From the NCBI GenBank assembly GCA_964554105.1, contig CAZKNF010000004.1, positions 38,195 to 102,194 of the forward strand: DNA of 64,000 bases, in the 5' to 3' direction. This document shows, in pieces, positions 22,251-34,628 of this stretch (positions are counted from its first letter, which is position 1; every line of letters starts with the position of its first letter). The notes under the pieces were generated by a model. That model made no database searches. It was not told where the DNA came from and worked only from the letters and a program-made list of their open reading frames with translations. Both the position numbers and the translations under genes were made by a program. This DNA is from an uncultured Rhodothermales bacterium. GTDB lineage: Bacteria; Bacteroidota; Rhodothermia; Rhodothermales; VXPQ01.

Positions 22251-23464
22251 TGCTCCAGACCATGCGTGAGCGCATTCGAAAGATAAACGATGATTTGTTC
22301 GATGAAGTCGTGCGGCTGCGCCGGAAGATCCACCAGGATCCGGAGCTGGCCTTCGAAGAGGAGAAGACGGCCCGGCTCGTCATCGAGACGCTTGAGCCGT
22401 TAGACCTCGAGCTGCGCACGAAGGTCGCAAAAACGGGCGTCGTAGCGACATTGGAGGGAGCACACCCCGGCCCCACGGTTGCTCTTCGTGGCGATATGGA
22501 TGCCCTTCCGATTCACGAAGAGAATGATTTCGAGTTCGCCTCCCAAATCGCAGGTAAGATGCACGCCTGCGGCCACGATGCGCATACGTCGTCCCTTCTC
22601 GGCACCGCGATGATTCTCGCACGACTTCGTGAGGACCTCCACGGTCGCATCCGCTTCCTCTTCCAGCCCAGCGAAGAGCGTCTTCCCGGAGGTGCCAGGC
22701 CGATGATCGACGAGGGTGTGCTGAATGGTAATGATTCACCGCGCGCCGTCTTTGGCCAGCATGTCCAGCCCGATCTTCCTGCAGGACAAATTGGAGTGCG
22801 AAGCGGCATGTATATGGCCTCATCTGATGAAATCTACATTACAATAAAAGGGGCCGGAGGCCACGCGGCAGCTCCGCACATGCTGTCAAGCGACGCCGTC
22901 CTGGCCGCATCACACGTCGTAATCGCGCTTCAGAGCGTCGTCAGCCGCAATTGTCCGCCCGACGTACCGAGCGTGCTCACGATAGGCCGTCTGATCGCGG
23001 ACGGTGCAACCAACGTCATTCCCGAGCAAGTTGTGCTCGAAGGGACGTTTCGGGCCATGGATGAGACGTGGCGATCCAGCGCCCATGAGTTGATTCACAG
23101 AGTCGCCGTCGGAACCGCCCGGGCGTACGGTGCGGAAGCCGAAGTTAAGATCGTAGTCGGCTATCCCGCCTTGTACAACCATCCCGCGGAGACCGACTTC
23201 GTGCGTGACGCGGCCGCTGATTATGTCGGCGCCGAAAACGTCGTCGAGCTCGACCAGTGGTTTGCTTCGGAGGACTTCGCGTGGTATCTGAAGCACGTGC
23301 CGGGCTCGTTTTATCGAATCGGCACGGGTAATAAGGAGAAAGGCATCGTCCACGGACTGCATACACCGCGGTTCACGATCGATGAAGATGCACTGCGGAC
23401 CGCTCCCGGATTCATGGCGTATCTTGCCTGGAAGTATACTTCGAGCCTGTCCGGATCTGAATGA
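22250..23464 (+). CDS. M20 family amidohydrolase (N-acyl-amino acid amidohydrolase/hippuricase-like)
   Basis: Motifs MHACGHDAHT, LFQPSEE and GGHAAAPH. I chose the ATG at 22250, which overlaps the M28 stop (TGATG). The ORF track begins at 22193. Confidence 0.85.
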   Translation: MLQTMRERIRKINDDLFDEVVRLRRKIHQDPELAFEEEKTARLVIETLEPLDLELRTKVAKTGVVATLEGAHPGPTVALRGDMDALPIHEENDFEFASQIAGKMHACGHDAHTSSLLGTAMILARLREDLHGRIRFLFQPSEERLPGGARPMIDEGVLNGNDSPRAVFGQHVQPDLPAGQIGVRSGMYMASSDEIYITIKGAGGHAAAPHMLSSDAVLAASHVVIALQSVVSRNCPPDVPSVLTIGRLIADGATNVIPEQVVLEGTFRAMDETWRSSAHELIHRVAVGTARAYGAEAEVKIVVGYPALYNHPAETDFVRDAAADYVGAENVVELDQWFASEDFAWYLKHVPGSFYRIGTGNKEKGIVHGLHTPRFTIDEDALRTAPGFMAYLAWKYTSSLSGSE

Positions 23465-24039
23465 AGCTCTTCTCTTTCGTCCTCCTTAGCCTTGTCGTTT
23501 TCACCACCGGCTGTTCATCGACAGAGGAAATCGAGACATCACGTCCACGTACGCCTGAAGGTTCGACGAGCGAGGAAACACCTGCCGACCGGCAAGCACA
23601 GCTCGTGGTCACGCTCGCGCAAGGAGAAAGTGCTCTTCCGGACGATATCGAGCGACTCGAGTTTCGCATATCTGAAGTTCGGGTACACCGGGCAGATGGA
23701 GAGTGGGTCCGGCTCCCATCAGACATGCGTCAGTTCACCATGTCGCAGCGACAGTCGGAGCCTCGTAGAACGGTCATCGAGACGAGCGTACCTCCTGCGG
23801 AATATGATTCGGTGGCGTTCGCGTTCAACAGCATCTTCGCCACCTTCAATGCGAATGCCGGCGCGCCGCTAACAGCGCCGGACGATGCACCACTGCGGAT
23901 GGCACTCAATTTGAATCCGTCGCTTGAAGACCGAACTGTGCTCGCACTTTTATTCGAGCCGGGCGCATCTCTTCGACGCTCGCCTGATTGCCGCTGGTTC
24001 TTTGTGCCGGTGATCCGCACTGAGACGGTTGCTCCCTAG
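23461..24039 (+). CDS. Lipoprotein, possibly DUF4382-like
   Basis: Lipobox LVVFTTGCSS. The segment IERLEFRISEVRVHRADGEWVRLP resembles the DUF4382 core. The start forms an ATGA overlap with the M20 gene. Confidence 0.5.
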   Translation: MKLFSFVLLSLVVFTTGCSSTEEIETSRPRTPEGSTSEETPADRQAQLVVTLAQGESALPDDIERLEFRISEVRVHRADGEWVRLPSDMRQFTMSQRQSEPRRTVIETSVPPAEYDSVAFAFNSIFATFNANAGAPLTAPDDAPLRMALNLNPSLEDRTVLALLFEPGASLRRSPDCRWFFVPVIRTETVAP

Positions 24040-24114: not shown

Positions 24115-24417
24115 TCAGTATGCGGCGGGCGCATTGACAGCTTCGACGCGGGAAATTTGCGGTACAGAGCGCTTGAGCGCCTGTTCGATGCCGGCACGAA
24201 GCGTCATCGTGCTCATTGGACAGGATCCGCATGCACCGAGAAGTTCAAGCTCGACCACCAGGTCCGGCGTGATATTCAACAAACGCACGGACCCACCATC
24301 CGCCATTAGATAAGGGCGGATCATATCAAGAGACTCCTCGATCTGACTGCGAAGCTCCGAATCCGCACCAGGATCAAACTCGTCCGAATATGATGTCTGG
24401 TCGTTATTCTCAGGCAT
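24115..24417 (-). CDS. NifU-like Fe-S cluster assembly domain protein (Nfu type)
   Basis: The sequence IRPYLMADGGSVRLL...ELELLGACGSCPMSTMTLRAGIEQAL contains the CxxC Nfu motif. Confidence 0.85.
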   Translation of the reverse strand: MPENNDQTSYSDEFDPGADSELRSQIEESLDMIRPYLMADGGSVRLLNITPDLVVELELLGACGSCPMSTMTLRAGIEQALKRSVPQISRVEAVNAPAAY

Positions 24418-24517
24418 TGGGCAGGTGCGGCGGGTTGATGAACCCGATATATAGTCGTATCAACGTCGGAAACGATGAAAAGCGCGCGGGGATCCCAGCA
24501 CTACATATTCCGGGGGA

Positions 24518-25636
24518 TTACTTGTATAGAATCTCAACCTTTTGCGTTGGCTCAATCTCCGCATTGCGGATGGTCACCTGCTCCACGACGCGGTCAGCGA
24601 GATCGCGGAATGCTGTCGAAGAAATACTGTCGGGATGGGAAACCACCATCGGCTCACCCCTGTCACTCGTTTCACGAAGCGCTTGCTCGATCGGAATCTC
24701 TGCCAGCAGACCTACACCCAGTTCTTCGGCAAGTTGCCTCGCTCCACGCTCTCCGAATAGGAAGTATTTCCGGTCCGGTAAATCAGGCGGTGTGAAATAC
24801 GCCATATTTTCGACGATACCTAGTACCGGCACGTTCACGTTCTCGAACATCGCCACTCCCTTTCTCGCGTCAGCGAGGGCAACTTTCTGCGGTGTGGATA
24901 CGATAACCGCCCCCGTCAAGGCGACCGTCTGTACGATAGTAAGCTGGATGTCGCCCGTACCCGGTGGGAGATCGAGAATAAGATAGTCGAGCTCACCCCA
25001 TTCAGCCTCCCCAAGGAACTGACGAACGGCATTCGAGACCATCGGGCCACGCCAGATCACCGCCTTCGCCGGATCCACCATCATACCCATCGAAAGCAGT
25101 CGGACACCATGTCGCTCGAGCGGAACGATTTTTCGGTGTTCGTTGACGCGGGGCTTTTCGTCCTCCACGCCAAACATCGTGGGGACCGAAGGACCGTACA
25201 TGTCGGTGTCCACCAAACCGACGTCGAACCCCTTCTGCGCTAAGGCGACAGCGAGATTCGATGCCACGGTGCTCTTGCCGACCCCTCCCTTGCCGGATGC
25301 TACGGCGATGAAGTTGACCACGCCCTTCGGCTGGGCCGACTGCTTACCTCCAGACCCGTCGCCCTCTAGCTGCTCGCCGAGGGAAATCATCTCGTTGTCT
25401 AATGCAACATCGACGCGGACGTCTGAACCCGCTTCCTTCTTGATCGCCGAAGCACAGAGCTCGGTGACGCGTTCCGCGAACGGGGCACCCGGGTTCCTGA
25501 GCACGACCGTGAAAGTTACGTGGTTGCCGGCGATCCGAAGGCCCTTGACCATGTTGAGACGCAGCACGTCCCGTCCGCTCTCCGGCTCAATAACATGAGA
25601 GAGTGCGTGGAGAACCTGTTCTCGCGTAACGGCCAT
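24518..25636 (-). CDS. mrp: Mrp/NBP35 (ApbC) family Fe-S cluster carrier ATPase
   Basis: N-terminal DUF59-like domain, deviant Walker A ASGKGGVGKSTV, and ILDLPPGTGD. Confidence 0.9.
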   Translation of the reverse strand: MAVTREQVLHALSHVIEPESGRDVLRLNMVKGLRIAGNHVTFTVVLRNPGAPFAERVTELCASAIKKEAGSDVRVDVALDNEMISLGEQLEGDGSGGKQSAQPKGVVNFIAVASGKGGVGKSTVASNLAVALAQKGFDVGLVDTDMYGPSVPTMFGVEDEKPRVNEHRKIVPLERHGVRLLSMGMMVDPAKAVIWRGPMVSNAVRQFLGEAEWGELDYLILDLPPGTGDIQLTIVQTVALTGAVIVSTPQKVALADARKGVAMFENVNVPVLGIVENMAYFTPPDLPDRKYFLFGERGARQLAEELGVGLLAEIPIEQALRETSDRGEPMVVSHPDSISSTAFRDLADRVVEQVTIRNAEIEPTQKVEILYK

Positions 25637-25777
25637 TTTTCAACTAGAGAATTGGTGTTCGGACTCCGCTGGGTTGGGACAGTGGGTTGTATCGATTGTT
25701 CCTATCGTACGCCGTCCTGGAACGCGACGATGAAAGGTAATCTCCGAGGATTCTCGGTGAGAGAAATGGCCTTTAAG

Positions 25778-26620
25778 CTACTGGTCAGCACGCCTTAAAG
25801 CGCCGGCCCACCAATCATTCTCAATCCGTTCGTCTACCAGATTGAAACCGTGACCATGAGAGATCTGCAGGAGCCGATCGCGATCCATACGGAGCACACC
25901 CGATACGAGAAGCGATCCATTCTCCGCGAGCCTCTCGCCGAACTCAGAAAGTAATCCCGCGATCACATTGAAATTTATGTTCGCTAAGATGACGTCGAAC
26001 CCGTTCTCGTATACCGTCTCAATCGAGCCCGACCGCATCTCGGCACGATCGGCGACACGGTTCAGATAGAAATTCTCCACGGCATTCGTCTGAGACCACG
26101 GATCGGTATCGAACGCTACTGCCGTCGACGCGCCAACTTTAATAGCCGCCACTGCAAGGATCCCGGTGCCTGTGCCTGCATCAAGGACGTTGTCCCCTGC
26201 ATGCACATAGTCCGGCAGCATGCGCAGCAGTAAACGCGTGGACTCGTGATAACCTGTCCCGAAACTCATCTTCGGATCGATTTCCAGAAGCGTCAAAGTC
26301 TCGCTCGCGGACGGCGTACTGTGCCACGTGGGCTTGACTAGAAAGGGTCCGACGACCACAGGTCGGATCGTTTCTTCCCAGCGCCGATTCCAGTTTTCTT
26401 CGGCAATGACCTCCTCTGCTATCGGCGTGTGAACGTCGTGCTGCGTGAGCCACCGCTCGATGCTTTCACGTGCTACGTCATTCCACCTTGCCGCTGGTAT
26501 GTACGCGATGATGCAGTCGTCATGCTGCTCGAATGCATCGAAGTCGAGGTCAGAGAGCTCGGCGATCAGAATCTCCTGATATGCATCGGGGACGTGAATT
26601 GTCAGGGCAATAGTCTGCAC
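25778..26620 (-). CDS. prmA: Ribosomal protein L11 methyltransferase
   Basis: Motifs IDPKMSFGTGYHESTRL and VLDAGTGTGILAVAA. Confidence 0.85.
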   Translation of the reverse strand: MQTIALTIHVPDAYQEILIAELSDLDFDAFEQHDDCIIAYIPAARWNDVARESIERWLTQHDVHTPIAEEVIAEENWNRRWEETIRPVVVGPFLVKPTWHSTPSASETLTLLEIDPKMSFGTGYHESTRLLLRMLPDYVHAGDNVLDAGTGTGILAVAAIKVGASTAVAFDTDPWSQTNAVENFYLNRVADRAEMRSGSIETVYENGFDVILANINFNVIAGLLSEFGERLAENGSLLVSGVLRMDRDRLLQISHGHGFNLVDERIENDWWAGALRRADQ

Positions 26621-26692
26621 GTGATAGCGATTCTTTTCCGTCGCCGACGGGCGGCGATACTGAGCGACTGTAGCGGACCGGCCGACGCCGTT

Positions 26693-28498
26693 CTAAAGTT
26701 TAGATATCCGAATACCCCAATTCTGCGGATCGATAGGTGCCTCGTCGCCGAAATCGCCGTACGCGTGGGAGAAGTCTGATCGATAGTGAACCGTATAGGT
26801 ACCGGCATCGAGCGTGACCGTGCCGTCGAATCGACGGTTCCGGTCAGCACCGCCGGCCGGCCGCGTGTTCTGCCACGTCATCTCCCATACGATCTCTCCG
26901 GTTTCGGTATTCTCTATCCAAGCATAGTCGTACCGTCCACTGATCGAAATCTCACCCATTGCCTGCACGTGCAGATTTGACTGTTCGTCGAGAACTATCG
27001 ATTCGCTCCTGCGCGTTTCATTCCCGACCTCAGAGAAAGTAAGTATCGTCGTCCCGGGAAGATCGGGCGTGGCAGACGGTGCAGGCGGCGGCGGGGGACG
27101 CATATCGTCGTTTTCTAACGTCGATTGTTCATAGCCGAGCACCTCCACAATGGTGGAATCAACGTCCTCTTCAACAGGAAAGAGACTCACCCCCCAACGA
27201 TTCGGATGCTCCGGCAGGGCGTGCCGCCACGAATCGAACGCGTGTGAGTCATCCGTTTCGTAGCCCAGCGTGTACGCACCCGGTTCAAGGTGGAAAAACG
27301 CCATCTCAGCGCGATTATTGTCATGGTCGCCTGTGCGTCGCGAGTTCTCCCACGTCATCTCCCAGACGCTCTCTTGCGACTCGTTGTTGCGAAGCCATGC
27401 CCAGTCATAGCGACTACCTTCACCGATCTCTCCAACTGCATTGGCGACCACGTGCACCGGCTCGTTGACCCGAAACTGCGCACGCCGCCGTTCATCGTTG
27501 CCAACCCTGGTGAGTTCGATTATAGGACTGCGCGTCGTGACCGGGTCAAATGCAGTGACAGCGGAGACCGGATCCGCCGATAACGTGATACCCCAGCCTG
27601 CGGCGTCGAAGGGCGGATTCCCTACCCAGTCACCCCAGCTTTGCAGCGCATCCGTTTCGTAGACGGCACGATAGATACCCGGCTCGATACTTAGTGTGTC
27701 GCTATAGACCCGGTTGACGTTCCATCCGCCCGCGTGATCGGTGTTCGCGATGGTCATCTCCCAGAGCCGCTCTCCAGCAAGCACGTTCTCGATTATGCCG
27801 TAGTCCATCTGCTCGTCACCGATCTCTCCTACGGCGTACACGAACAACCTGGCGGAATCCGCCACACGGAATACGTACTCCTCGTTCTGTCGGCCCCTCA
27901 TTGGCGCCGTACTCCAGACGGCGTTTGGCGGCTGGGGCGCAAGTTGATCGTCCGGCTCCTCTTCCAACCGTTCAACTGCCGTCCGTTCGCCGTCCGACAT
28001 CCGAACGACCATCCTCCACTCGCTGTCGTCGTTGCGCCATCCTGACTCATTACCAAAGATGCGGTCGAGAAGTGAGATCCCGAAACGAGAGCTGTTGCGG
28101 TTGCCGAAGGAGCTGAAATAGATGTCGTAGATTCCAGGGTCCAGCTCCACGGTGTCTCGCGCCGTTGCGACGCTTCCGCGGTCACGCGTCGAGGTCTCCG
28201 GTTCCATACGCCAGACTACCTCACGATCTTTACGATCCAGCACCCATCCGTACGCGGCAAGTGAGGCGTTTCCGTCGGTCGACTCGTACGAACCCACCGC
28301 TTCGATCGCGATGCGAGCAGGACGATCGAGCGAAAAAGCAGCGTGGCGCAGTCGTTCGGGCTCGATATCGGAAAGCACGACAACACCTTCCGGCTCGGGA
28401 GGGCCTTGCGAAATTCGATATGCTAAGAGCAGTGTAACCAGAGCGAGCAGAATCAGCTCAACTCGAACCAACTTCTTACGGTTCATAGAGGCGAACAT
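26693..28498 (-). CDS. Secreted or membrane-anchored protein with four ~115-aa internal repeats and unknown function
   Basis: N-terminal hydrophobic anchor LILLALVTLLLAY. The repeats fall at roughly aa 45-165, 195-307, 325-440 and 483-599. They share AxGEI....YDxAWIxN....ExVWEMT..N....GG...NR.......L.PGxYxxxYxxDxSH....W....P..P..WGI. Confidence 0.7.
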   Translation of the reverse strand: MFASMNRKKLVRVELILLALVTLLLAYRISQGPPEPEGVVVLSDIEPERLRHAAFSLDRPARIAIEAVGSYESTDGNASLAAYGWVLDRKDREVVWRMEPETSTRDRGSVATARDTVELDPGIYDIYFSSFGNRNSSRFGISLLDRIFGNESGWRNDDSEWRMVVRMSDGERTAVERLEEEPDDQLAPQPPNAVWSTAPMRGRQNEEYVFRVADSARLFVYAVGEIGDEQMDYGIIENVLAGERLWEMTIANTDHAGGWNVNRVYSDTLSIEPGIYRAVYETDALQSWGDWVGNPPFDAAGWGITLSADPVSAVTAFDPVTTRSPIIELTRVGNDERRRAQFRVNEPVHVVANAVGEIGEGSRYDWAWLRNNESQESVWEMTWENSRRTGDHDNNRAEMAFFHLEPGAYTLGYETDDSHAFDSWRHALPEHPNRWGVSLFPVEEDVDSTIVEVLGYEQSTLENDDMRPPPPPAPSATPDLPGTTILTFSEVGNETRRSESIVLDEQSNLHVQAMGEISISGRYDYAWIENTETGEIVWEMTWQNTRPAGGADRNRRFDGTVTLDAGTYTVHYRSDFSHAYGDFGDEAPIDPQNWGIRISKL

Positions 28499-28776
28499 GA
28501 CATGGGCAGTCCCCGCGTGTACGAATTCACCTTAGCGAAGTTACAGCCGTCGCTGAACGGAGATTCATCTCGCGACCACTGGGCGCCTGTAACATAAATT
28601 CGCTTTTTCAGTAGTATGGCAGTTAGTTCGTCCGCGCCGGCTTCGGCCTGGCAGGAACGCACTTCAACTTGGCGAAAAACCGGTGTGCGCCTGGGTTCAG
28701 ATCCGGAGGGGAGCATCACGGCTCTTACGATGTATCCGTGGTTTATCAGCCGTTTGGCAGGCCGTTTACGGTAAGC

Positions 28777-31020
28777 ATGTTCTCGCATCTCATCGCTAGA
28801 TCACCACATGGACCGGCGTCGTCCCTGCTAAGCAGCCGGGCCCGCCGCATCGCCGTGGCTGTTGGCGCAGGGCTGAGCTACGTGGTTGCGGTGGCGCTAA
28901 ATTTAATACAGTGGCAATCCGGCCTACCTTTGTCGCTCTGGGGCAATGCAGCGTACGAGATCGTCGTCATATTTGGCTTTCTTCTGCTGTGGCTCCTCAT
29001 CTCCCATGCCTTTCGCCAACGGCAAATCGCGCCGTTGAAGATATTCTGGACCACGCTTGTCGTTGGTATTCTGCTGATTCTGTTTGCCCGCCTTGTGGTA
29101 GGTATGGCCGAGCCGCAGGGAGTCGAGATCAATCCCAGTACACTTGGATTTGAGTATGGCACAGGCGTCCCGCTCACGCTGGCAACCGTAGTTAAGATGA
29201 GCCTGCTCAGCCTTCTCAAGGCTGCCTTCGCGTTCTTCCTGCTCCTCCGCTTTCGCGATCTTGTACTCTACAAGCGGACCCGGCGCAGCCTGCGCAACTG
29301 GTACCTTATGATTGGTCTCATGGCGGCTGGAGCGTTGTCCGCGTTCTTTAAAGATCCGGCGACCGACAGCAGTGCATTTCAGATTATCGCTCTGGCGCCG
29401 GCCGGCATCCTGATGACGATCAATGCATTCCGCGTTTCGTGGATCGTCTTCCTTTCATTCAGAGAGAAGGCGGCGGGAATCGGATTGTCGATTCTTCTCA
29501 TGGGAGTCCTCGGCGTCGCACTCGGCTCCGATGAGACGCTGCCGGGCCTCGAGGCGTACGTTCGGCATTACAGCTATCCGCTGGAGCTCTTCACGGATCT
29601 CGCCATCGGTTTCGGGATGCTGTACTGCGTGACATCGTTCCTTTTCCTGCTGTTTCACCTGCCGACCACGAGTGACTTCCAGAGGAAAGCCGGCGAGGTA
29701 ACTGCGATGCACGGACTCACGAATCTCGTGAGTCAGGTATTCGATTCCGACAAGCTTTTCTTCACGATCACGGCGACACCGGTCGAAGCCGGGAATGCGG
29801 AAAAGGCGTGGCTGGCGGTCGCCGATCCGAGAAGTGGATCCCTCAAGCCCAGAATTGCCTCCTCATTTAATATTACCAGGGCGAAGATCGCGGAGTGCGT
29901 CGACCTGGCCGCCCTGTATGAGGATCTCGATAGCAGGCGCGAGCCTGTCTTGATAAACGAGGCACCGGCCGATCATCGCTTCCAGGCTCGTGCCGGCGAC
30001 GATCTTGGGAGCCTGCTGATGGTCCCGCTCATCGCGCGCAATGAAATGCTCGGGGGCCTCTTCGTCACTCGCGATGTGACCCACGGATTCGAGAAGGACG
30101 ATATCGAAACGATCAGCGTCTATGCCGCCCAGGCCGCGATCGCCATCGAAAATGCACAATTGTTTGAGGAGCGCGTCGAAAAGGAACGGCTTTCACGAGA
30201 GCTCGATATCGCTCGAGAAGTGCAGCGAAAGTTGCTCCCGCAGAACGTTCCGGTTGTCAGCGGACTCACAATCGCGGCGTCGAGCGCATCGGCCCTCGAA
30301 GTCGGAGGGGACTACTATGATTTCCTTCAGCTCGACGAAAACCGCCTGGCCTTCATTATCGCCGACGTTTCGGGTAAAGGCACGTCTGCAGCATTTTACA
30401 TGGCTGAGCTGCAGGGAATTTTCAGATCCGTCAGCAGACTCACGTCTTCTCCAGTGGAATTCCTCGATCATGCGAACAGGGCGCTTGCATCCGCTCTCGA
30501 ACGCCACGTTTTCGTTTCGGTGATCTACGGGATTGTCAACGTAGAGGAAGAAACGCTGGTGATCGCGCGCGGCGGCCACTGTCCCGCTGCCATGATCAAT
30601 CTGGACGGCGAGGCTCGGTTCATCCGTACGCAGGGTCTTGGGCTCGGCCTCGACAGAAGCGATCTCTTTAGGCAATCGCTTGTCGAGGAGAGGATTAACC
30701 TAGAACCCGGCGATGTTTTCGTACTTTATACGGACGGCGTAGTCGAGAGCCGGGACGCCGAAGGAACGGAATACGGATACGACCGGCTGTTGAACTCGCT
30801 GCGTGAGGTCCGGCACGAAGACGCGCCGGAGCTTCATAAATCGCTGTTGTCAGACCTTAATGAATTTCTCGACGAGACCGATTATGATGATGATCTTTCA
30901 CTCGTCGTATTGAAGTGGCACGGAATTGCGGTACCTGGTGTTGTCACCGGCCGCTCCGAGTCGACGGAAACACGTTCCATACCCTCCGAAAGTATCGAAC
31001 AGGAAGTGCAAACCGATTAA
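28777..31020 (+). CDS. Membrane-bound GAF-domain PP2C (SpoIIE/RsbU-type) serine phosphatase
   Basis: Roughly 8 TM helices, then a GAF-like region (LLMVPLIARNEMLGGLFVTRD), then PP2C motifs (REVQRKLLP, GGDYYDF, IADVSGKGTSAA, LYTDGVVE). I chose the ATG at 28777. The ORF track begins at 28669. Confidence 0.85.
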   Translation: MFSHLIARSPHGPASSLLSSRARRIAVAVGAGLSYVVAVALNLIQWQSGLPLSLWGNAAYEIVVIFGFLLLWLLISHAFRQRQIAPLKIFWTTLVVGILLILFARLVVGMAEPQGVEINPSTLGFEYGTGVPLTLATVVKMSLLSLLKAAFAFFLLLRFRDLVLYKRTRRSLRNWYLMIGLMAAGALSAFFKDPATDSSAFQIIALAPAGILMTINAFRVSWIVFLSFREKAAGIGLSILLMGVLGVALGSDETLPGLEAYVRHYSYPLELFTDLAIGFGMLYCVTSFLFLLFHLPTTSDFQRKAGEVTAMHGLTNLVSQVFDSDKLFFTITATPVEAGNAEKAWLAVADPRSGSLKPRIASSFNITRAKIAECVDLAALYEDLDSRREPVLINEAPADHRFQARAGDDLGSLLMVPLIARNEMLGGLFVTRDVTHGFEKDDIETISVYAAQAAIAIENAQLFEERVEKERLSRELDIAREVQRKLLPQNVPVVSGLTIAASSASALEVGGDYYDFLQLDENRLAFIIADVSGKGTSAAFYMAELQGIFRSVSRLTSSPVEFLDHANRALASALERHVFVSVIYGIVNVEEETLVIARGGHCPAAMINLDGEARFIRTQGLGLGLDRSDLFRQSLVEERINLEPGDVFVLYTDGVVESRDAEGTEYGYDRLLNSLREVRHEDAPELHKSLLSDLNEFLDETDYDDDLSLVVLKWHGIAVPGVVTGRSESTETRSIPSESIEQEVQTD

Positions 31021-31035
31021 GAATAGAACTGAGAC

Positions 31036-31395
31036 ATGAGCAATTTTTCTGTTGGTTTTCGCACCAGCGATGAGATTCAGATACTCGATCTGAAAGGCGA
31101 GCTCGACGCGCATACGGCCTCCGAGCTCGAAGCAGCCTTACAGAAATGCCAGGATGATTCTCACGTTCTGATCGTTGTGAACGGCGAAAACCTCCAATAC
31201 ATCTCGAGCGCGGGGCTCGGGGTATTCATGGCATACATCGAAGAAGTCCGATCTCAGGGCGGGGACATTAAAATCGCCGCGCTGCAACCAAAAGTATTCA
31301 ATGTTTTCGACTTACTCGGTTTTCCGATGTTGTTTGACATCGTGAAGACGGAAGAAGAGGCGGTACACAAGTTCGAGAGCGCGAACGAGGCATAG
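31036..31395 (+). CDS. STAS-domain anti-sigma-factor antagonist (RsbV/SpoIIAA-like)
   Basis: 119 aa. The segment LQYISSAGLGVF carries the conserved phosphorylatable Ser context. Confidence 0.85.
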   Translation: MSNFSVGFRTSDEIQILDLKGELDAHTASELEAALQKCQDDSHVLIVVNGENLQYISSAGLGVFMAYIEEVRSQGGDIKIAALQPKVFNVFDLLGFPMLFDIVKTEEEAVHKFESANEA

Positions 31396-31437
31396 TTCGT
31401 CGCTGCTGCAGTCTATCCATAGCCACACCGTCGAATC

Positions 31438-31863
31438 GTGTCGCGATCCGTTCACACACTCAGCATCCCCAGCTCAACAAGCCACCTGGCAGAGGTGAGG
31501 CGATTTGTTGCGGAGTACGCCCGTGAGGCGGAATTCCCGGATACGACAATCGAGAAATTCAAGATTGCCGTAGATGAGGCGTGTACGAACATCATCAAAC
31601 ACGCCTACAAGGGGGATACTACGCATACGATCGATCTCGCCGTTATTATCGAAGACGAGCGCTTCATCGTTCGCATCCGTGACGAAGGACGTGCATTCGA
31701 CGCACAGAAGTACACCGAACCCGACATTTTTCACCTTGCGGAGGATCGGAGGGCCGGCGGCTTCGGCGTTCAGATCATGCGTCGACTCATGGATCTCGTC
31801 GAATACCGCACCAGTGGCACGGTTAACGAGGTGACCCTCGTGAAGCTGAGGAATGGTACATGA
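31438..31863 (+). CDS. Anti-sigma regulatory factor Ser/Thr kinase (RsbW/SpoIIAB-like, HATPase_c)
   Basis: Motifs VDEACTNIIKHAY (N-box) and GGFGVQIMRRLMD (G-box). GTG start. Confidence 0.8.
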   Translation: MSRSVHTLSIPSSTSHLAEVRRFVAEYAREAEFPDTTIEKFKIAVDEACTNIIKHAYKGDTTHTIDLAVIIEDERFIVRIRDEGRAFDAQKYTEPDIFHLAEDRRAGGFGVQIMRRLMDLVEYRTSGTVNEVTLVKLRNGT

Positions 31864-31900
31864 GAGGCGGGTGAGCGAACAGACATGACGTATGTCGCAG

Positions 31901-32656
31901 TCAGCTCTTTTTAGGTGCCGCACCCCGTTTAGCCGGTTTGCGTGCCGAGTACAGCGACGCAATCCCGAACGTTAAGGGCAGCGTTTCCACATCCACGTAC
32001 CCTGATCCATGCAGGCGATCTAAAAACTGCTCGCCGGACGGAAACACATCGACAGAGGCGGGCAGGTATCGGTACGCATCCTCATTCTTTGATACGAGGC
32101 GTCCGACCACGGGCAGGACGACGTGCGAATAGAATCGGTATAAATGGTTGATAGGAAAAGCATGCGGCTGGCTGAATTCTAGTATCACCAGTCGCCCCCC
32201 TGGGGCCAGGACCCTTCGTATCTCCCGAAGGCCGCGCTCAAGATCTTCGAAATTCCGGACACCGAACGCCACGAGTGCGGCGTCGAACTGAGAATCCGAA
32301 AACGGAAGTTTCTCCGCGTCGCCAACCTGCAGCGTGATACGATCGCCGAGGTCACGCTCCTCAATCTTCTTACGACCCCGCGCCAGCATCTCCTCCGAAA
32401 TATCGACGCCGACGATCTTCGCGGGATCGACATCCAGTGCCTTGATGGCGAGATCGCCGGTGCCGGTGGCCACGTCCAGAATCCGACGAGGACTGTCCTC
32501 TTTGAGCAGTTCAACTGCTTTCTGCCGCCATTGCTGATCGATGCCGAAGCTGAGCATTCGATTCAGCAAATCGTATCGCGGCGCAATGTCGTCAAACATT
32601 GCCGCGACCGCTTCCTTCTTCCCGGGCGCCTCCCCGGCTGGGGGCTGTGTGCTCAT
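31901..32656 (-). CDS. ubiE: Demethylmenaquinone/ubiquinone C-methyltransferase
   Basis: Motifs MFDDIAPRYDLLNRMLSFGIDQQWR and ILDVATGTGDLA. Confidence 0.9.
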   Translation of the reverse strand: MSTQPPAGEAPGKKEAVAAMFDDIAPRYDLLNRMLSFGIDQQWRQKAVELLKEDSPRRILDVATGTGDLAIKALDVDPAKIVGVDISEEMLARGRKKIEERDLGDRITLQVGDAEKLPFSDSQFDAALVAFGVRNFEDLERGLREIRRVLAPGGRLVILEFSQPHAFPINHLYRFYSHVVLPVVGRLVSKNEDAYRYLPASVDVFPSGEQFLDRLHGSGYVDVETLPLTFGIASLYSARKPAKRGAAPKKS

Positions 32657-32661
32657 GGTAA

Positions 32662-33645
32662 TTAGCTCAGGAGCTGGGTGAGCCGAAGCAGTTCATAGTT
32701 GATATTTTTTTTGCGGCTCCAGACGTTTCGAAGCGGCGTGAGCTTTGTCTCGTTGTTGACGAGTCCGACCATCACGTTCTCGTGGCCCGCGATCAGCGCC
32801 TCGACTGCAGAGGACCCTAGGCGGCTCGCCAGAACGCGGTCTCTGGCAGTCGGCGAACCACCGCGCTGCGTGTGCCCCAGTATGCATATTCGCAGATCTA
32901 TCTGGCCAAACGCCTCATCCGCGCGAAGCGCCGCTTCGATCGTCTGGGCACCGCCGTGCTCGTCGCCTTCAGCCACAACGACAATCGACGACCGCGACTG
33001 AGCCGTCATTAACGAAAGGATGCGCGCCTTGATGTCCTCCATCTCAGTAAACGTCTCGGGGACAAGGACGAGCTCGGCGCCGCCGCCAATGCCGCAATTA
33101 AGAGCGATGAAGCCCGCATCGCGACCCATGACTTCAACCAGAAAAAGTCGATCATGCGCGTCGGCCGTATCACGGATCCGATCTATATTTTCTATTGCCG
33201 TGTTCAGCGCTGTGTCGTAGCCTATTGTCTCGTCGGTGCCGAACAGATCGTTGTCGATTGTACCAGGGCAGCCGACGGTAGCCACGGAATGCTCATCATA
33301 TAAAATTGCCGCTCCGCGGAACGTGCCGTCGCCGCCAATACCGACCAGACCATCGATGCCGGCCTCCTGAAGTGCCTCCGCGGCCTTCTGCCTGCCCTCC
33401 GGTGTCCGAAACTCGTCGGAACGCGCACTCTTGAGGATCGTGCCGCCTTTCTGGAGGATGTTCGAGACAGATCGCCCGTCCATTTCCACGTAATCGCCAT
33501 CGATCATCCCGGCGAAGCCGCGTCGAATACCGATTACTTCGAGATCATGGGCTAGACAGGCCCTAACGGCCGCTCGGACGCACGCATTCATGCCCGGCGC
33601 ATCGCCGCCACTCGTGAAAACGCCGATTCTTCTCGGATTGACCAT
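32662..33645 (-). CDS. pfkA: ATP-dependent 6-phosphofructokinase
   Basis: Motifs RIGVFTSGGDAPGMN, GIGGDGT, PGTIDND and MGR. I chose the start at MVNPRR (33645). The ORF track begins at 33699. Confidence 0.9.
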   Translation of the reverse strand: MVNPRRIGVFTSGGDAPGMNACVRAAVRACLAHDLEVIGIRRGFAGMIDGDYVEMDGRSVSNILQKGGTILKSARSDEFRTPEGRQKAAEALQEAGIDGLVGIGGDGTFRGAAILYDEHSVATVGCPGTIDNDLFGTDETIGYDTALNTAIENIDRIRDTADAHDRLFLVEVMGRDAGFIALNCGIGGGAELVLVPETFTEMEDIKARILSLMTAQSRSSIVVVAEGDEHGGAQTIEAALRADEAFGQIDLRICILGHTQRGGSPTARDRVLASRLGSSAVEALIAGHENVMVGLVNNETKLTPLRNVWSRKKNINYELLRLTQLLS

Positions 33646-33695
33646 CTTGTAGCCCATCTGCCGGTGACCGCCGGGAAAAACCGAGTGTTCGATAC

Positions 33696-34628
33696 TCACG
33701 AGGAACTCGGCTCCAGTGGTCTTGCCACAATGATACCAATGGTAGCTCCGACACCCTGCACATAGGATTGAAGATCCGGCGAAACTTTGACGCCTTCGCT
33801 AGTGGATGCATGAAGAAGTCCCATCGTGCCGTCTTCATTGGCGTAGGCAAGCCCAGTGTGGGTCACGTCGAGTCCCTCAATGTGCGTGGCCGTCGCGATG
33901 ATGTCGCCGTCCCTGAGTTCATCGTAACTATCGGCGATTCGGTCCTGCGGAATGTAGAATAGCTCCATGTCTCGAAGGCGATCTTCGCTTTCCTGGATGC
34001 ACTGAAACAAACTGTCATCTGCAGCAAAGCGGGGATAACTCTCACGATTATCCGACATGAAAGATATCTCCTTGTCGTACTCCGCGCCGCCGATCTCTTC
34101 AGTGATGTTTTCGACAGTACCTCTGCGTTCGTTGTCGGCGATCCACTCAGTAAAGTAGTGGAGCCGACTGCAGTAGCCCTCCATCTGGCCAGCTCGATAG
34201 CGCTGTTCCCGGATGAGATTCGCATACGTCGAGTAGTCGTAGTCGTGCATTTTCACGGCCCGCGCCAGCGCAAGTGTCGCCTCGACGAATGTCACACAGT
34301 CAAACGCGTCGAGCCGGCAGATCAGCGTCTCTTCGTCCGGCTCGTCGAGCAAACCTGCCGCGTACGGCGAGTCAGCAAAGCGCTCTCCTAGGGCGGTCAT
34401 GATCTCTCCCATCGGCCGCTCATCGAGATCATTCGCTCGCGCATAGTCCATCGTCTCATCGAAAAGTCGCAGCGTCATGGAGTCCGGCGCAGGCACCGGC
34501 TGATCCAGCGACGAGAGTTCTCCGTCTGTCGTCGATTGCAGCGCCCCGTCCGACTGATCTATATCCTGCCCGTTGCACCCGGATGTCACCAGCAGCACGA
34601 GACCGACCAATATCAACAGCTGTTTCAT
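33696..34628 (-). CDS. DUF1460-like lipoprotein (amidase-like fold family)
   Basis: Lipobox LLVTSGCNG. The segment SPYAAGLLDEPDEETLICRLDAFDCVTFVEATLALA resembles the DUF1460 core. The start is at MKQLL (34628). Confidence 0.55.
   Translation of the reverse strand: MKQLLILVGLVLLVTSGCNGQDIDQSDGALQSTTDGELSSLDQPVPAPDSMTLRLFDETMDYARANDLDERPMGEIMTALGERFADSPYAAGLLDEPDEETLICRLDAFDCVTFVEATLALARAVKMHDYDYSTYANLIREQRYRAGQMEGYCSRLHYFTEWIADNERRGTVENITEEIGGAEYDKEISFMSDNRESYPRFAADDSLFQCIQESEDRLRDMELFYIPQDRIADSYDELRDGDIIATATHIEGLDVTHTGLAYANEDGTMGLLHASTSEGVKVSPDLQSYVQGVGATIGIIVARPLEPSSS

Follow-up and report, generated by a model that had tools for sequence, protein, structure and literature searches.

The window analyzed here is a 64,000-nucleotide stretch of the genome of an uncultured Rhodothermales bacterium (assembly GCA_964554105.1, contig CAZKNF010000004.1, positions 38,195 to 102,194 of the forward strand). 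The gene of interest encodes a 601-residue protein composed of a hydrophobic N-terminal helix and four tandem copies of a repeat of about 120 residues; prmA lies downstream of it, and genes for a GAF-SpoIIE phosphatase, a STAS protein, and an RsbW-like kinase lie divergently upstream (Table 1). The repeat is not recognized by sequence in Pfam, NCBIfam, or the PDB. It represents a domain family not described before, its fold belongs to a very common class, and the protein that carries it is a conserved hypothetical one.

Table 1. Coordinates of the four-repeat gene, its parts, and its immediate neighbors in the window (aa, amino acids; ORF, open reading frame; HMM, hidden Markov model)
Feature	Position	Strand	Basis or remark
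Four-repeat envelope protein gene, 601 aa	26693..28498	(-)	ORF, stop codon included
N-terminal hydrophobic helix (aa 7-31), read as uncleaved signal anchor	28406..28480	(-)	AlphaFold2 helix and Kyte–Doolittle hydropathy
Repeat 1 (aa 39 to ~177), diverged copy	27968..28384	(-)	HMM match aa 39-139, E 1.3e-15
Repeat 2 (aa 192-308)	27575..27925	(-)	HMM E 1.8e-43; E225, D232, D283 conserved
Repeat 3 (aa 323-441)	27176..27532	(-)	HMM E 8.4e-48; E357, D365, D416, H419 invariant or nearly so
Pro-rich linker between repeats 3 and 4 (aa 442-482)	27053..27175	(-)	Partly disordered; contains PPPPPAPSATP
Repeat 4 (aa 483-600), closest to family consensus	26699..27052	(-)	HMM E 7.9e-50
Divergent intergenic region shared with the GAF-SpoIIE gene	28499..28776	.	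170 bp (start at TTG 28669) or 278 bp (start at ATG 28777)
Context: GAF-SpoIIE (PP2C) phosphatase, STAS protein, RsbW-like kinase	28669..31863	(+)	Pfam
Context: prmA, downstream, same strand	25778..26620	(-)	PrmA, E 2.5e-49

The four-repeat protein and its family

Pairwise comparison of the repeats by blastp gave E-values of 1.7e-29 (repeats 3 and 4), 2e-20 (2 and 4), 3.8e-16 (2 and 3), 1.9e-7 (1 and 3), and 5.7e-7 (1 and 4), and an HMM built from repeats 2–4 of 38 homologs matches the protein four times, at the boundaries given in Table 1. Four internal repeats had been proposed in the original prediction, made from the sequence of the window alone; both comparisons bear this out, and the ranges then given (residues 45–165, 195–307, 325–440, and 483–599) are essentially those of the HMM. 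The greater divergence ascribed to the first copy is likewise evident, its E-value of 1.3e-15 comparing with 1e-43 to 1e-50 for the other three. Short similarities between copies at the DNA level had also been reported, and these too are real: the block GTCATCTCCCAKAC, whose reverse complement encodes a conserved VWEMT motif, is found at 26877, at 27354, and, with one mismatch, at 27753, three occurrences against 0.05 expected by chance.

Repeat 1 looks like a degenerate copy, because the three acidic residues characteristic of the other repeats (described below) are replaced in the HMM alignment by Ser70, Ala82, and Phe130, and because the long last loop has given way to a helical insertion; its model has strands at residues 40–129 and 162–177, with the insertion at residues 142–160. 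Within the linker between repeats 3 and 4, residues 464–474 are modeled as disordered (predicted local distance difference test, pLDDT, <50 in AlphaFold2). Tryptophan is enriched in the protein at 3.3%, whereas tyrosine, also at 3.3%, is ordinary; its earlier description as rich in both residues is therefore correct for tryptophan only. The protein and most of its neighbors in 24115–33699 are acidic (isoelectric point 4.2–5.3), and several are poor in lysine (0.7% in the four-repeat protein, 1.1% in PrmA, and 1.0% in NifU, with arginine at 6–8.5%). Halophily, or some other adaptation of the source organism at the level of composition, may account for this acidic, lysine-poor character.

Translation probably begins at the ATG at 28486, which encodes Met5, rather than at the listed ATG at 28498, since Met5 is the first invariant methionine in an alignment of close homologs, and those proteins start with M(N/K/S)R(K/S)K. 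Residues 8–31 are the sole strongly hydrophobic stretch of the protein, with the top Kyte–Doolittle windows located there, and coincide with the modeled N-terminal helix; the N-terminal anchor of the original prediction is thereby supported. Homologs of the Rhodothermales clade keep the anchor motif M.R...VR.(E/Q)L.LLA.VTLLL.YR...GPP.P.G, which places a polar Glu or Gln inside the helix, and no small-residue (AxA) cleavage site was found after this motif in them. In distant homologs (≤33% identity), ordinary cleavable signal peptides with AxA-type ends replace the anchor. Because close homologs share the anchor and distant ones carry classic signal peptides, the four-repeat family is, judging from these N-termini, extracytoplasmic, and the earlier view of a secreted protein stands in that form. 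For the window protein, the most likely arrangement is a tether in the inner membrane, with the repeats facing the periplasm.

A large protein collection contains 96 full-length homologs, almost all of 570–640 residues and with 92–99% query coverage. None of these has been named for a function or contains a genuine Pfam domain, and a few are labeled "hypothetical protein"; the organism-named records are assigned to Rhodothermales or Rhodothermia, including Rhodothermus marinus and Rubrivirga, with two further records named only as "Bacteroidetes bacterium" and "bacterium." Scanning with the repeat profile in HMMER recovered 1,218 clusters (50% identity) at E ≤ 1e-3, of which 430 also pass E ≤ 1e-30. 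The profile usually matches these clusters in four stretches, and in a few cases in five or six. Repeat copy number is not fixed at four. Five or six repeats are present in P0097 (856 residues, with a classic signal peptide) and in P0099 (a 652-residue fragment with its N-terminus missing).

Much of the family lies outside the close clade, since most of the 241 family proteins retrieved are 25–40% identical to the window protein over its full length. A scan of genomes identified 37 loci, mostly in Rhodothermales, Rhodothermia, or Rhodothermaceae (including the isolate Roseithermus sacchariphilus), together with three labeled "uncultured bacterium" or "Bacteroidetes bacterium" and one in a Calditrichaeota metagenome-assembled genome (MAG). 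Because the scan patterns were drawn from Rhodothermales-biased sequences, this near-exclusive result is no evidence of restriction to that order. A further large homolog search, made with a diverse profile of 31 sequences, added no new proteins, and searches of literature and databases identified no study, name, or Pfam domain for the conserved hypothetical orthologues in Rhodothermales.

Predicted fold and conserved loop residues

Searches for a known family were negative throughout. The whole protein had no significant match in Pfam and only noise in NCBIfam. The only Pfam hit, below threshold, was to glycoside hydrolase family 11 (PF00457): it scored 21.3 bits, short of the cut-off of 27, and covered profile positions 53–117 of 178 and repeat 1 only. 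A sequence search of the PDB returned xylanases alone, at E 0.016. Both reflect the strand pattern shared among jelly rolls, and the family 11 hit was rejected as fold-level noise. Whole-protein and repeat profiles matched no PDB chain even at E ≤ 10, and 32 diverse single repeats searched against Pfam at E ≤ 10 hit eleven families, with one member each and none recurring. A PF25942 tag on the homolog P0078 reflected a "faint" Ig_halo match that was gone on rescanning. The original prediction had been unable to assign the repeat to any domain family, and its position is unchanged by these searches; profile and structure searches with a single repeat gave no significant sequence match, and CUB as the nearest fold. 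A literature search on CUB-like periplasmic bacterial proteins found nothing relevant.

AlphaFold2, run with a 38-sequence alignment, modeled the full-length protein (mean pLDDT 89.5; predicted template modeling score, pTM, 0.71) as an N-terminal helix followed by four all-beta domains; repeat 4 alone was modeled at pLDDT 95.4, with eight strands. On the strength of these models each repeat is very probably an eight-stranded jelly-roll beta-sandwich, and the beta-sandwich anticipated from the sequence pattern is borne out in both the full-length and the repeat-4 models. The repeat-4 model has a fold of the CUB kind, a jelly roll of two four-stranded sheets that is superposable on solved CUB domains.

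Foldseek searches against the PDB were made with both the full-length model and repeat 4. For repeat 4, the matches include C1r/C1s (6f1h_C) at a query-based template modeling score (TMq) of 0.60, MAp19 CUB1 (1szb) at 0.53, with the lowest E-value in the list (5.8e-4), and the CUB domains of MASP-1 and MASP-2 at 0.49–0.53, the match probability for CUB being 1.0. Lower scores were obtained for a GOLD domain (TMq 0.46), the C-terminal domain of the KP-43 protease (0.43), the CBM6 of an agarase (2cdp/2cdo; 0.38), and the head of influenza haemagglutinin (about 0.35). Less specifically, the full-length model retrieved proteins made up of serial beta-sandwiches: the CUB1-EGF-CUB2 regions of C1r/C1s and MASP, the N-terminal region of reelin, enteropeptidase, and ciliary central-pair proteins, and a library of viral structures yielded generic jelly rolls only (TMq ≤ 0.47). 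The nearest solved folds to the modeled repeat are thus the Ca2+-binding CUB domains.

Repeats 2–4 share a near-invariant signature, GE…YD…AGG..NR…D-x-S-H…P..P..WG, in which GE and YD flank the loop after strand 3, AGG..NR follows strand 5, and D-x-S-H…P..P..WG follows strand 7. Among 31 homologs at 26–38% identity, the Glu, Asp, and Asp of this signature are invariant in repeats 3 and 4 (E516, D524, and D575 in repeat 4, where S577 and H578 are each conserved in at least 90%); repeat 2 has an invariant D232, with E225 and D283 conserved in at least 90%. The Ser and His after the third acid reach at least 90% in repeats 2 and 4, and in repeat 3 the His only does so. The pattern extends to 733 distinct repeat copies, in which G35, E36, D44, W58, G69, G70, N74, G86, Y88, D95, P108, and G115 (repeat-4 numbering) are each conserved in at least 96%, and A68, R75, and H98 in 91–93%. 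Mapped on the secondary structure of repeat 4, most of the conserved positions fall in, or at the edges of, the loops that follow strands 3, 5, and 7. Alternation of the strands would place all three loops at one end of the sandwich. In repeat 2 of the Rhodothermales clade, the third acid is followed by Arg-Gln (by Leu-Gln in the window protein), as against Ser-His in the wider family; the site of repeat 2, compared with those of repeats 3 and 4, may be differently tuned.

The repeat-4 residues E36-x6-Y43-D44…D95-x-S97-H98 have the spacing of E45, Y52, D53, D98, S100, and N101 in C1s CUB1. In C1s, the ligand lysine makes contact with Glu45, Asp98, and Ser100, and the Ca2+ site requires Asp53 (PMC4222235); the Ca2+/ligand site of CUB domains lies in the odd-numbered loops L5 and L9 of the eight-stranded jelly roll (PMC8051872). 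A cation-dependent binding site on the repeats can be put forward tentatively, at somewhat less than an even chance. Because the strongest conservation falls on acidic and polar loop residues, a CUB-like, possibly metal-dependent site is favored over a classic carbohydrate-binding face. The suggestion of a carbohydrate- or envelope-binding beta-sandwich made in the original prediction keeps its beta-sandwich, but the best-conserved residues do not make up an aromatic platform, and carbohydrate binding itself is neither shown nor excluded.

Candidate roles and genomic context

We propose, as an evenly balanced judgment, that the protein is a membrane-tethered, multivalent periplasmic binding protein with CUB-like, possibly metal-dependent domains. 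The uncleaved N-terminal helix would tether it to the inner membrane, the four tandem jelly-roll domains would face the periplasm, and the loop end of domains 2–4 would form the putative binding site. There the Glu/Asp/Asp triad would probably hold a divalent cation in the manner of CUB domains, gripping the ligand through the cation, so that each molecule would present three equivalent sites; the degenerate domain 1, beside the membrane, might serve as a spacer or an interaction module. Such a protein could be a scaffold or multivalent binder for a protein or polysaccharide of the envelope, with a repeating or multivalent component as the most plausible ligand.

A number of results weigh against this proposal. 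The Foldseek E-values are marginal (about 1e-3), and TM values of 0.5–0.6 indicate a shared fold only; the clustering of the Glu, Asp, and Asp in space is taken from topology rather than from coordinates. The Pfam CUB family (PF00431) was absent at E ≤ 10 from the whole protein and from the 32 single repeats. In hhalign, a 32-sequence repeat profile aligned colinearly with C1s CUB1 (query sequence 100% identical to PDB 1nzi/6f1c) over 71 columns, pairing the six repeat-4 residues listed above with their six C1s counterparts, but at E 0.055 and a probability of 1%. A 741-copy repeat profile and a 116-sequence CUB alignment could be aligned over only 6–9 columns, and never significantly, in local, global, and low-mact runs; as this template, from 120 collected proteins, is narrow (C1r/C1s/MASP-like, mostly exon-sized fragments, 97 columns), the negative result is not strong either. 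Against four CUB domains, the 741-copy profile gave differing registers, and the signal was weak, with shuffles reaching the observed score in 2/100 and 1/100 cases for CUB1 domains and in 42/100 and 8/100 for CUB2 domains; only MASP-1 CUB1 fell in the expected register, with LSPGSFMSVTFRSDFSN on LDAGTYTVHYRSDFSH, that is, …FRSDFSN on …YRSDFSH. CUB domains normally contain two disulfides (four cysteines); the 601-residue protein has no cysteine, and the CUB disulfides are therefore absent. No conserved operon partner was found outside one clade in the loci examined. Membership in the CUB family is thus not shown, and the resemblance is one of fold together with a suggestive motif.

The protein could instead be an array of carbohydrate-binding modules (CBMs), its four sandwiches binding an envelope or extracellular glycan through aromatic residues; this is rather unlikely. 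The match of the fold to the agarase CBM6 (2cdp/2cdo) has a probability of 1.0, but its TMq of 0.38 is clearly below the 0.5–0.6 obtained for CUB domains. CBM51, galectin, and CBM32 are among the full-length Foldseek matches, and several homologs give weak, sub-threshold AMPK1_CBM matches; the 32 single repeats, however, have no Pfam CBM match save one AMPK1_CBM at E 0.13. Tryptophan is enriched, as noted, and W58 and W114 are conserved, yet conservation is strongest at Glu, Asp, Asn, Arg, Ser, and His in loops and not at an aromatic platform, and no glycoside hydrolase or catalytic domain is attached to the protein or consistently adjacent in the loci examined. Many CBMs are Ca2+-dependent, and a CBM array and the cation site proposed above are therefore overlapping interpretations.

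Downstream of the four-repeat gene, genes on the same strand encode PrmA, an Mrp/ApbC-type ATPase, and a NifU-like protein. The 72-nt gap before prmA (26621–26692) contains no terminator-like site on the minus strand, and in R. marinus the two genes overlap by 20 nt (L001, 7736–7755), which suggests that the envelope protein may be co-transcribed with this ribosomal-protein methyltransferase gene. A 192-residue ORF at 23461–24039 (+) has a lipoprotein-like N-terminus (…FTTGCSS) and a sub-threshold match to DUF4382 (21.2 bits, cut-off 25).

The divergent genes upstream are identified by Pfam matches to SpoIIE (1.4e-43), GAF_2 (6.4e-9), STAS (3.1e-16), and HATPase_c_2 (1e-30). Residues 61–329 of the phosphatase (28669–31020, plus strand) contain at least seven hydrophobic segments and match no Pfam family, and no recognized periplasmic sensor domain was found in the protein by Pfam; this region is an undescribed polytopic membrane input domain of a partner-switching phosphatase. 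The divergent region between the two genes, originally put at 278 bp, has that length if the phosphatase starts at its ATG codon, and is 170 bp if it starts at TTG. A sigma-70 scan detected no promoter-like site in 28499..28776, the scan being specific to sigma-70 and not covering Bacteroidota-type promoters.

Of the named-genome loci, 34 extend far enough upstream to be assessed, and 31 of these have the phosphatase/STAS/RsbW trio in the divergent upstream position; the 34 are from Rhodothermales or unclassified MAGs except for the Calditrichaeota locus (L041). The trio is also adjacent on three contigs encoding homologs of 34–43% identity (P0047, from R. marinus, and P0065 and P0069, the latter two at 34% and 37% between them). 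It is not adjacent in Roseithermus (L014), in L039, or in L041, nor beside any of the four homologs examined at ≤33% identity (P0090, P0076, P0072, and P0083). The neighborhoods of these four have no consistent common content, featuring a giant S8 peptidase with cupredoxins, a TonB-dependent receptor with an M19 peptidase, or a BACON/Big_2 protein. The functional linkage to the phosphatase suggested in the original prediction thus holds, as adjacency, within the Rhodothermales clade and fails at ≤33% identity and in two Rhodothermales genomes, so that, by the test of conserved synteny set in that prediction, it survives only as a clade-specific possibility. The anchored N-terminus largely coincides with adjacency to the GAF-SpoIIE gene; in Roseithermus the anchor is kept and the neighbor is gone.

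One form that such a link might take is a periplasmic co-sensor, in which the repeats would detect an envelope signal and relay it through the anchor helix to the membrane domain of the phosphatase, setting phosphorylation of the STAS protein. We regard this as unlikely. The recurrent adjacency speaks for it, and a subgroup of loci (e.g., L016, L021, and L026) retains the trio alone, with prmA, mrp, nifU, ubiE, and pfk gone, which is mild evidence for a specific link; however, pfk and ubiE as well as prmA, mrp, and nifU are also conserved in many linked loci, and because housekeeping genes on both sides are kept, adjacency may reflect clade-wide gene order. The many hydrophobic segments of the phosphatase and its want of a recognized periplasmic sensor domain would suit such a partner, as would the strongly conserved anchor, with its internal Glu or Gln, in the clade with adjacency, where non-adjacent distant homologs have cleavable signal peptides. 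Against this, the trio is absent beside L014, L039, L041, and the four distant homologs; the genes are divergent and hence do not form one operon; and a literature search on partner-switching in Rhodothermus found nothing relevant.

Significance and relation to known systems

That the repeats are true, very divergent CUB homologues (Pfam clan CUB), beyond a look-alike fold, is distinctly improbable: CUB domains are the top structural matches, the eight strands are colinear with theirs, the five-residue Ca2+/ligand motif is identically spaced (SDFSH versus SDFSN, RYDYAWI versus AYDSVQI), and MASP-1 CUB1 aligns as expected, but every sequence test is below significance, the disulfide cysteines are absent from the repeats, and the topology recurs in unrelated families, with GOLD, the KP-43 C-terminal domain, and the haemagglutinin head also matching. 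Bolder still, and the most speculative proposal offered here, would be that the repeats are prokaryotic relatives of the animal Ca2+-binding CUB domain that keep its Glu-Tyr-Asp…Asp-x-Ser site for a cation and lysine without disulfides, and that in Rhodothermales the protein also forms the periplasmic sensor arm of the adjacent membrane GAF-PP2C pathway; if true, this would define both a large bacterial family of CUB-type recognition proteins and a new input route to partner switching.

The family is sizeable and wholly unannotated, comprising the 1,218 clusters noted above, present in dozens of Rhodothermales genomes, and common in metagenomes; it now has domain boundaries, a confidently predicted fold, and near-invariant Glu, Asp, Asp, Ser, His, Asn, and Arg residues available for mutagenesis. 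A CUB-like cation site, if true, would extend to bacterial periplasmic proteins a mode of ligand recognition that is known mainly from extracellular proteins of animals, and the PP2C link, if true, would identify an envelope input to partner switching in a phylum without a studied example. Even if neither holds, the repeat is a clean candidate for a new domain-family entry. Another bacterial beta-sandwich repeat would be no great surprise to a specialist; it is the size of the family, its sharp conserved site, and its CUB-like geometry that recommend it for a domain entry and for simple experiments.

Among known systems, the CUB domains of C1r, C1s, the MASPs, and MAp19 (PF00431; 1nzi, 1szb, 6f1h, 3dem) are likewise eight-stranded, with two four-stranded sheets, and like the modeled repeats they occur as tandem arrays in extracytoplasmic proteins. 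Both have Glu…Tyr-Asp…Asp-x-Ser-(Asn/His), identically spaced, in the loops that come after strands 3 and 7. Unlike CUB domains, the repeats have no cysteines and show no significant sequence or profile similarity to them, and the conserved AGG..NR and P..P..WG loop motifs fall outside the CUB signature; the window protein further differs from CUB proteins in being bacterial, membrane-anchored, and four-copy, without EGF or protease domains. CBM6 is a jelly roll of similar size that is likewise bacterial, extracytoplasmic, and often repeated, but its structural similarity to the repeats is lower (TMq 0.38; root-mean-square deviation 8–10 Å), with no sequence match, and CBMs are joined to enzymes, whereas the window protein has no catalytic domain. 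The conserved hypothetical proteins of Rhodothermales include the 584-residue R. marinus protein P0047, a true orthologue at 43% identity over 99% of the length, which shares the four repeats, the anchor, and the gene neighborhood with the window protein and differs from it in nothing of substance.

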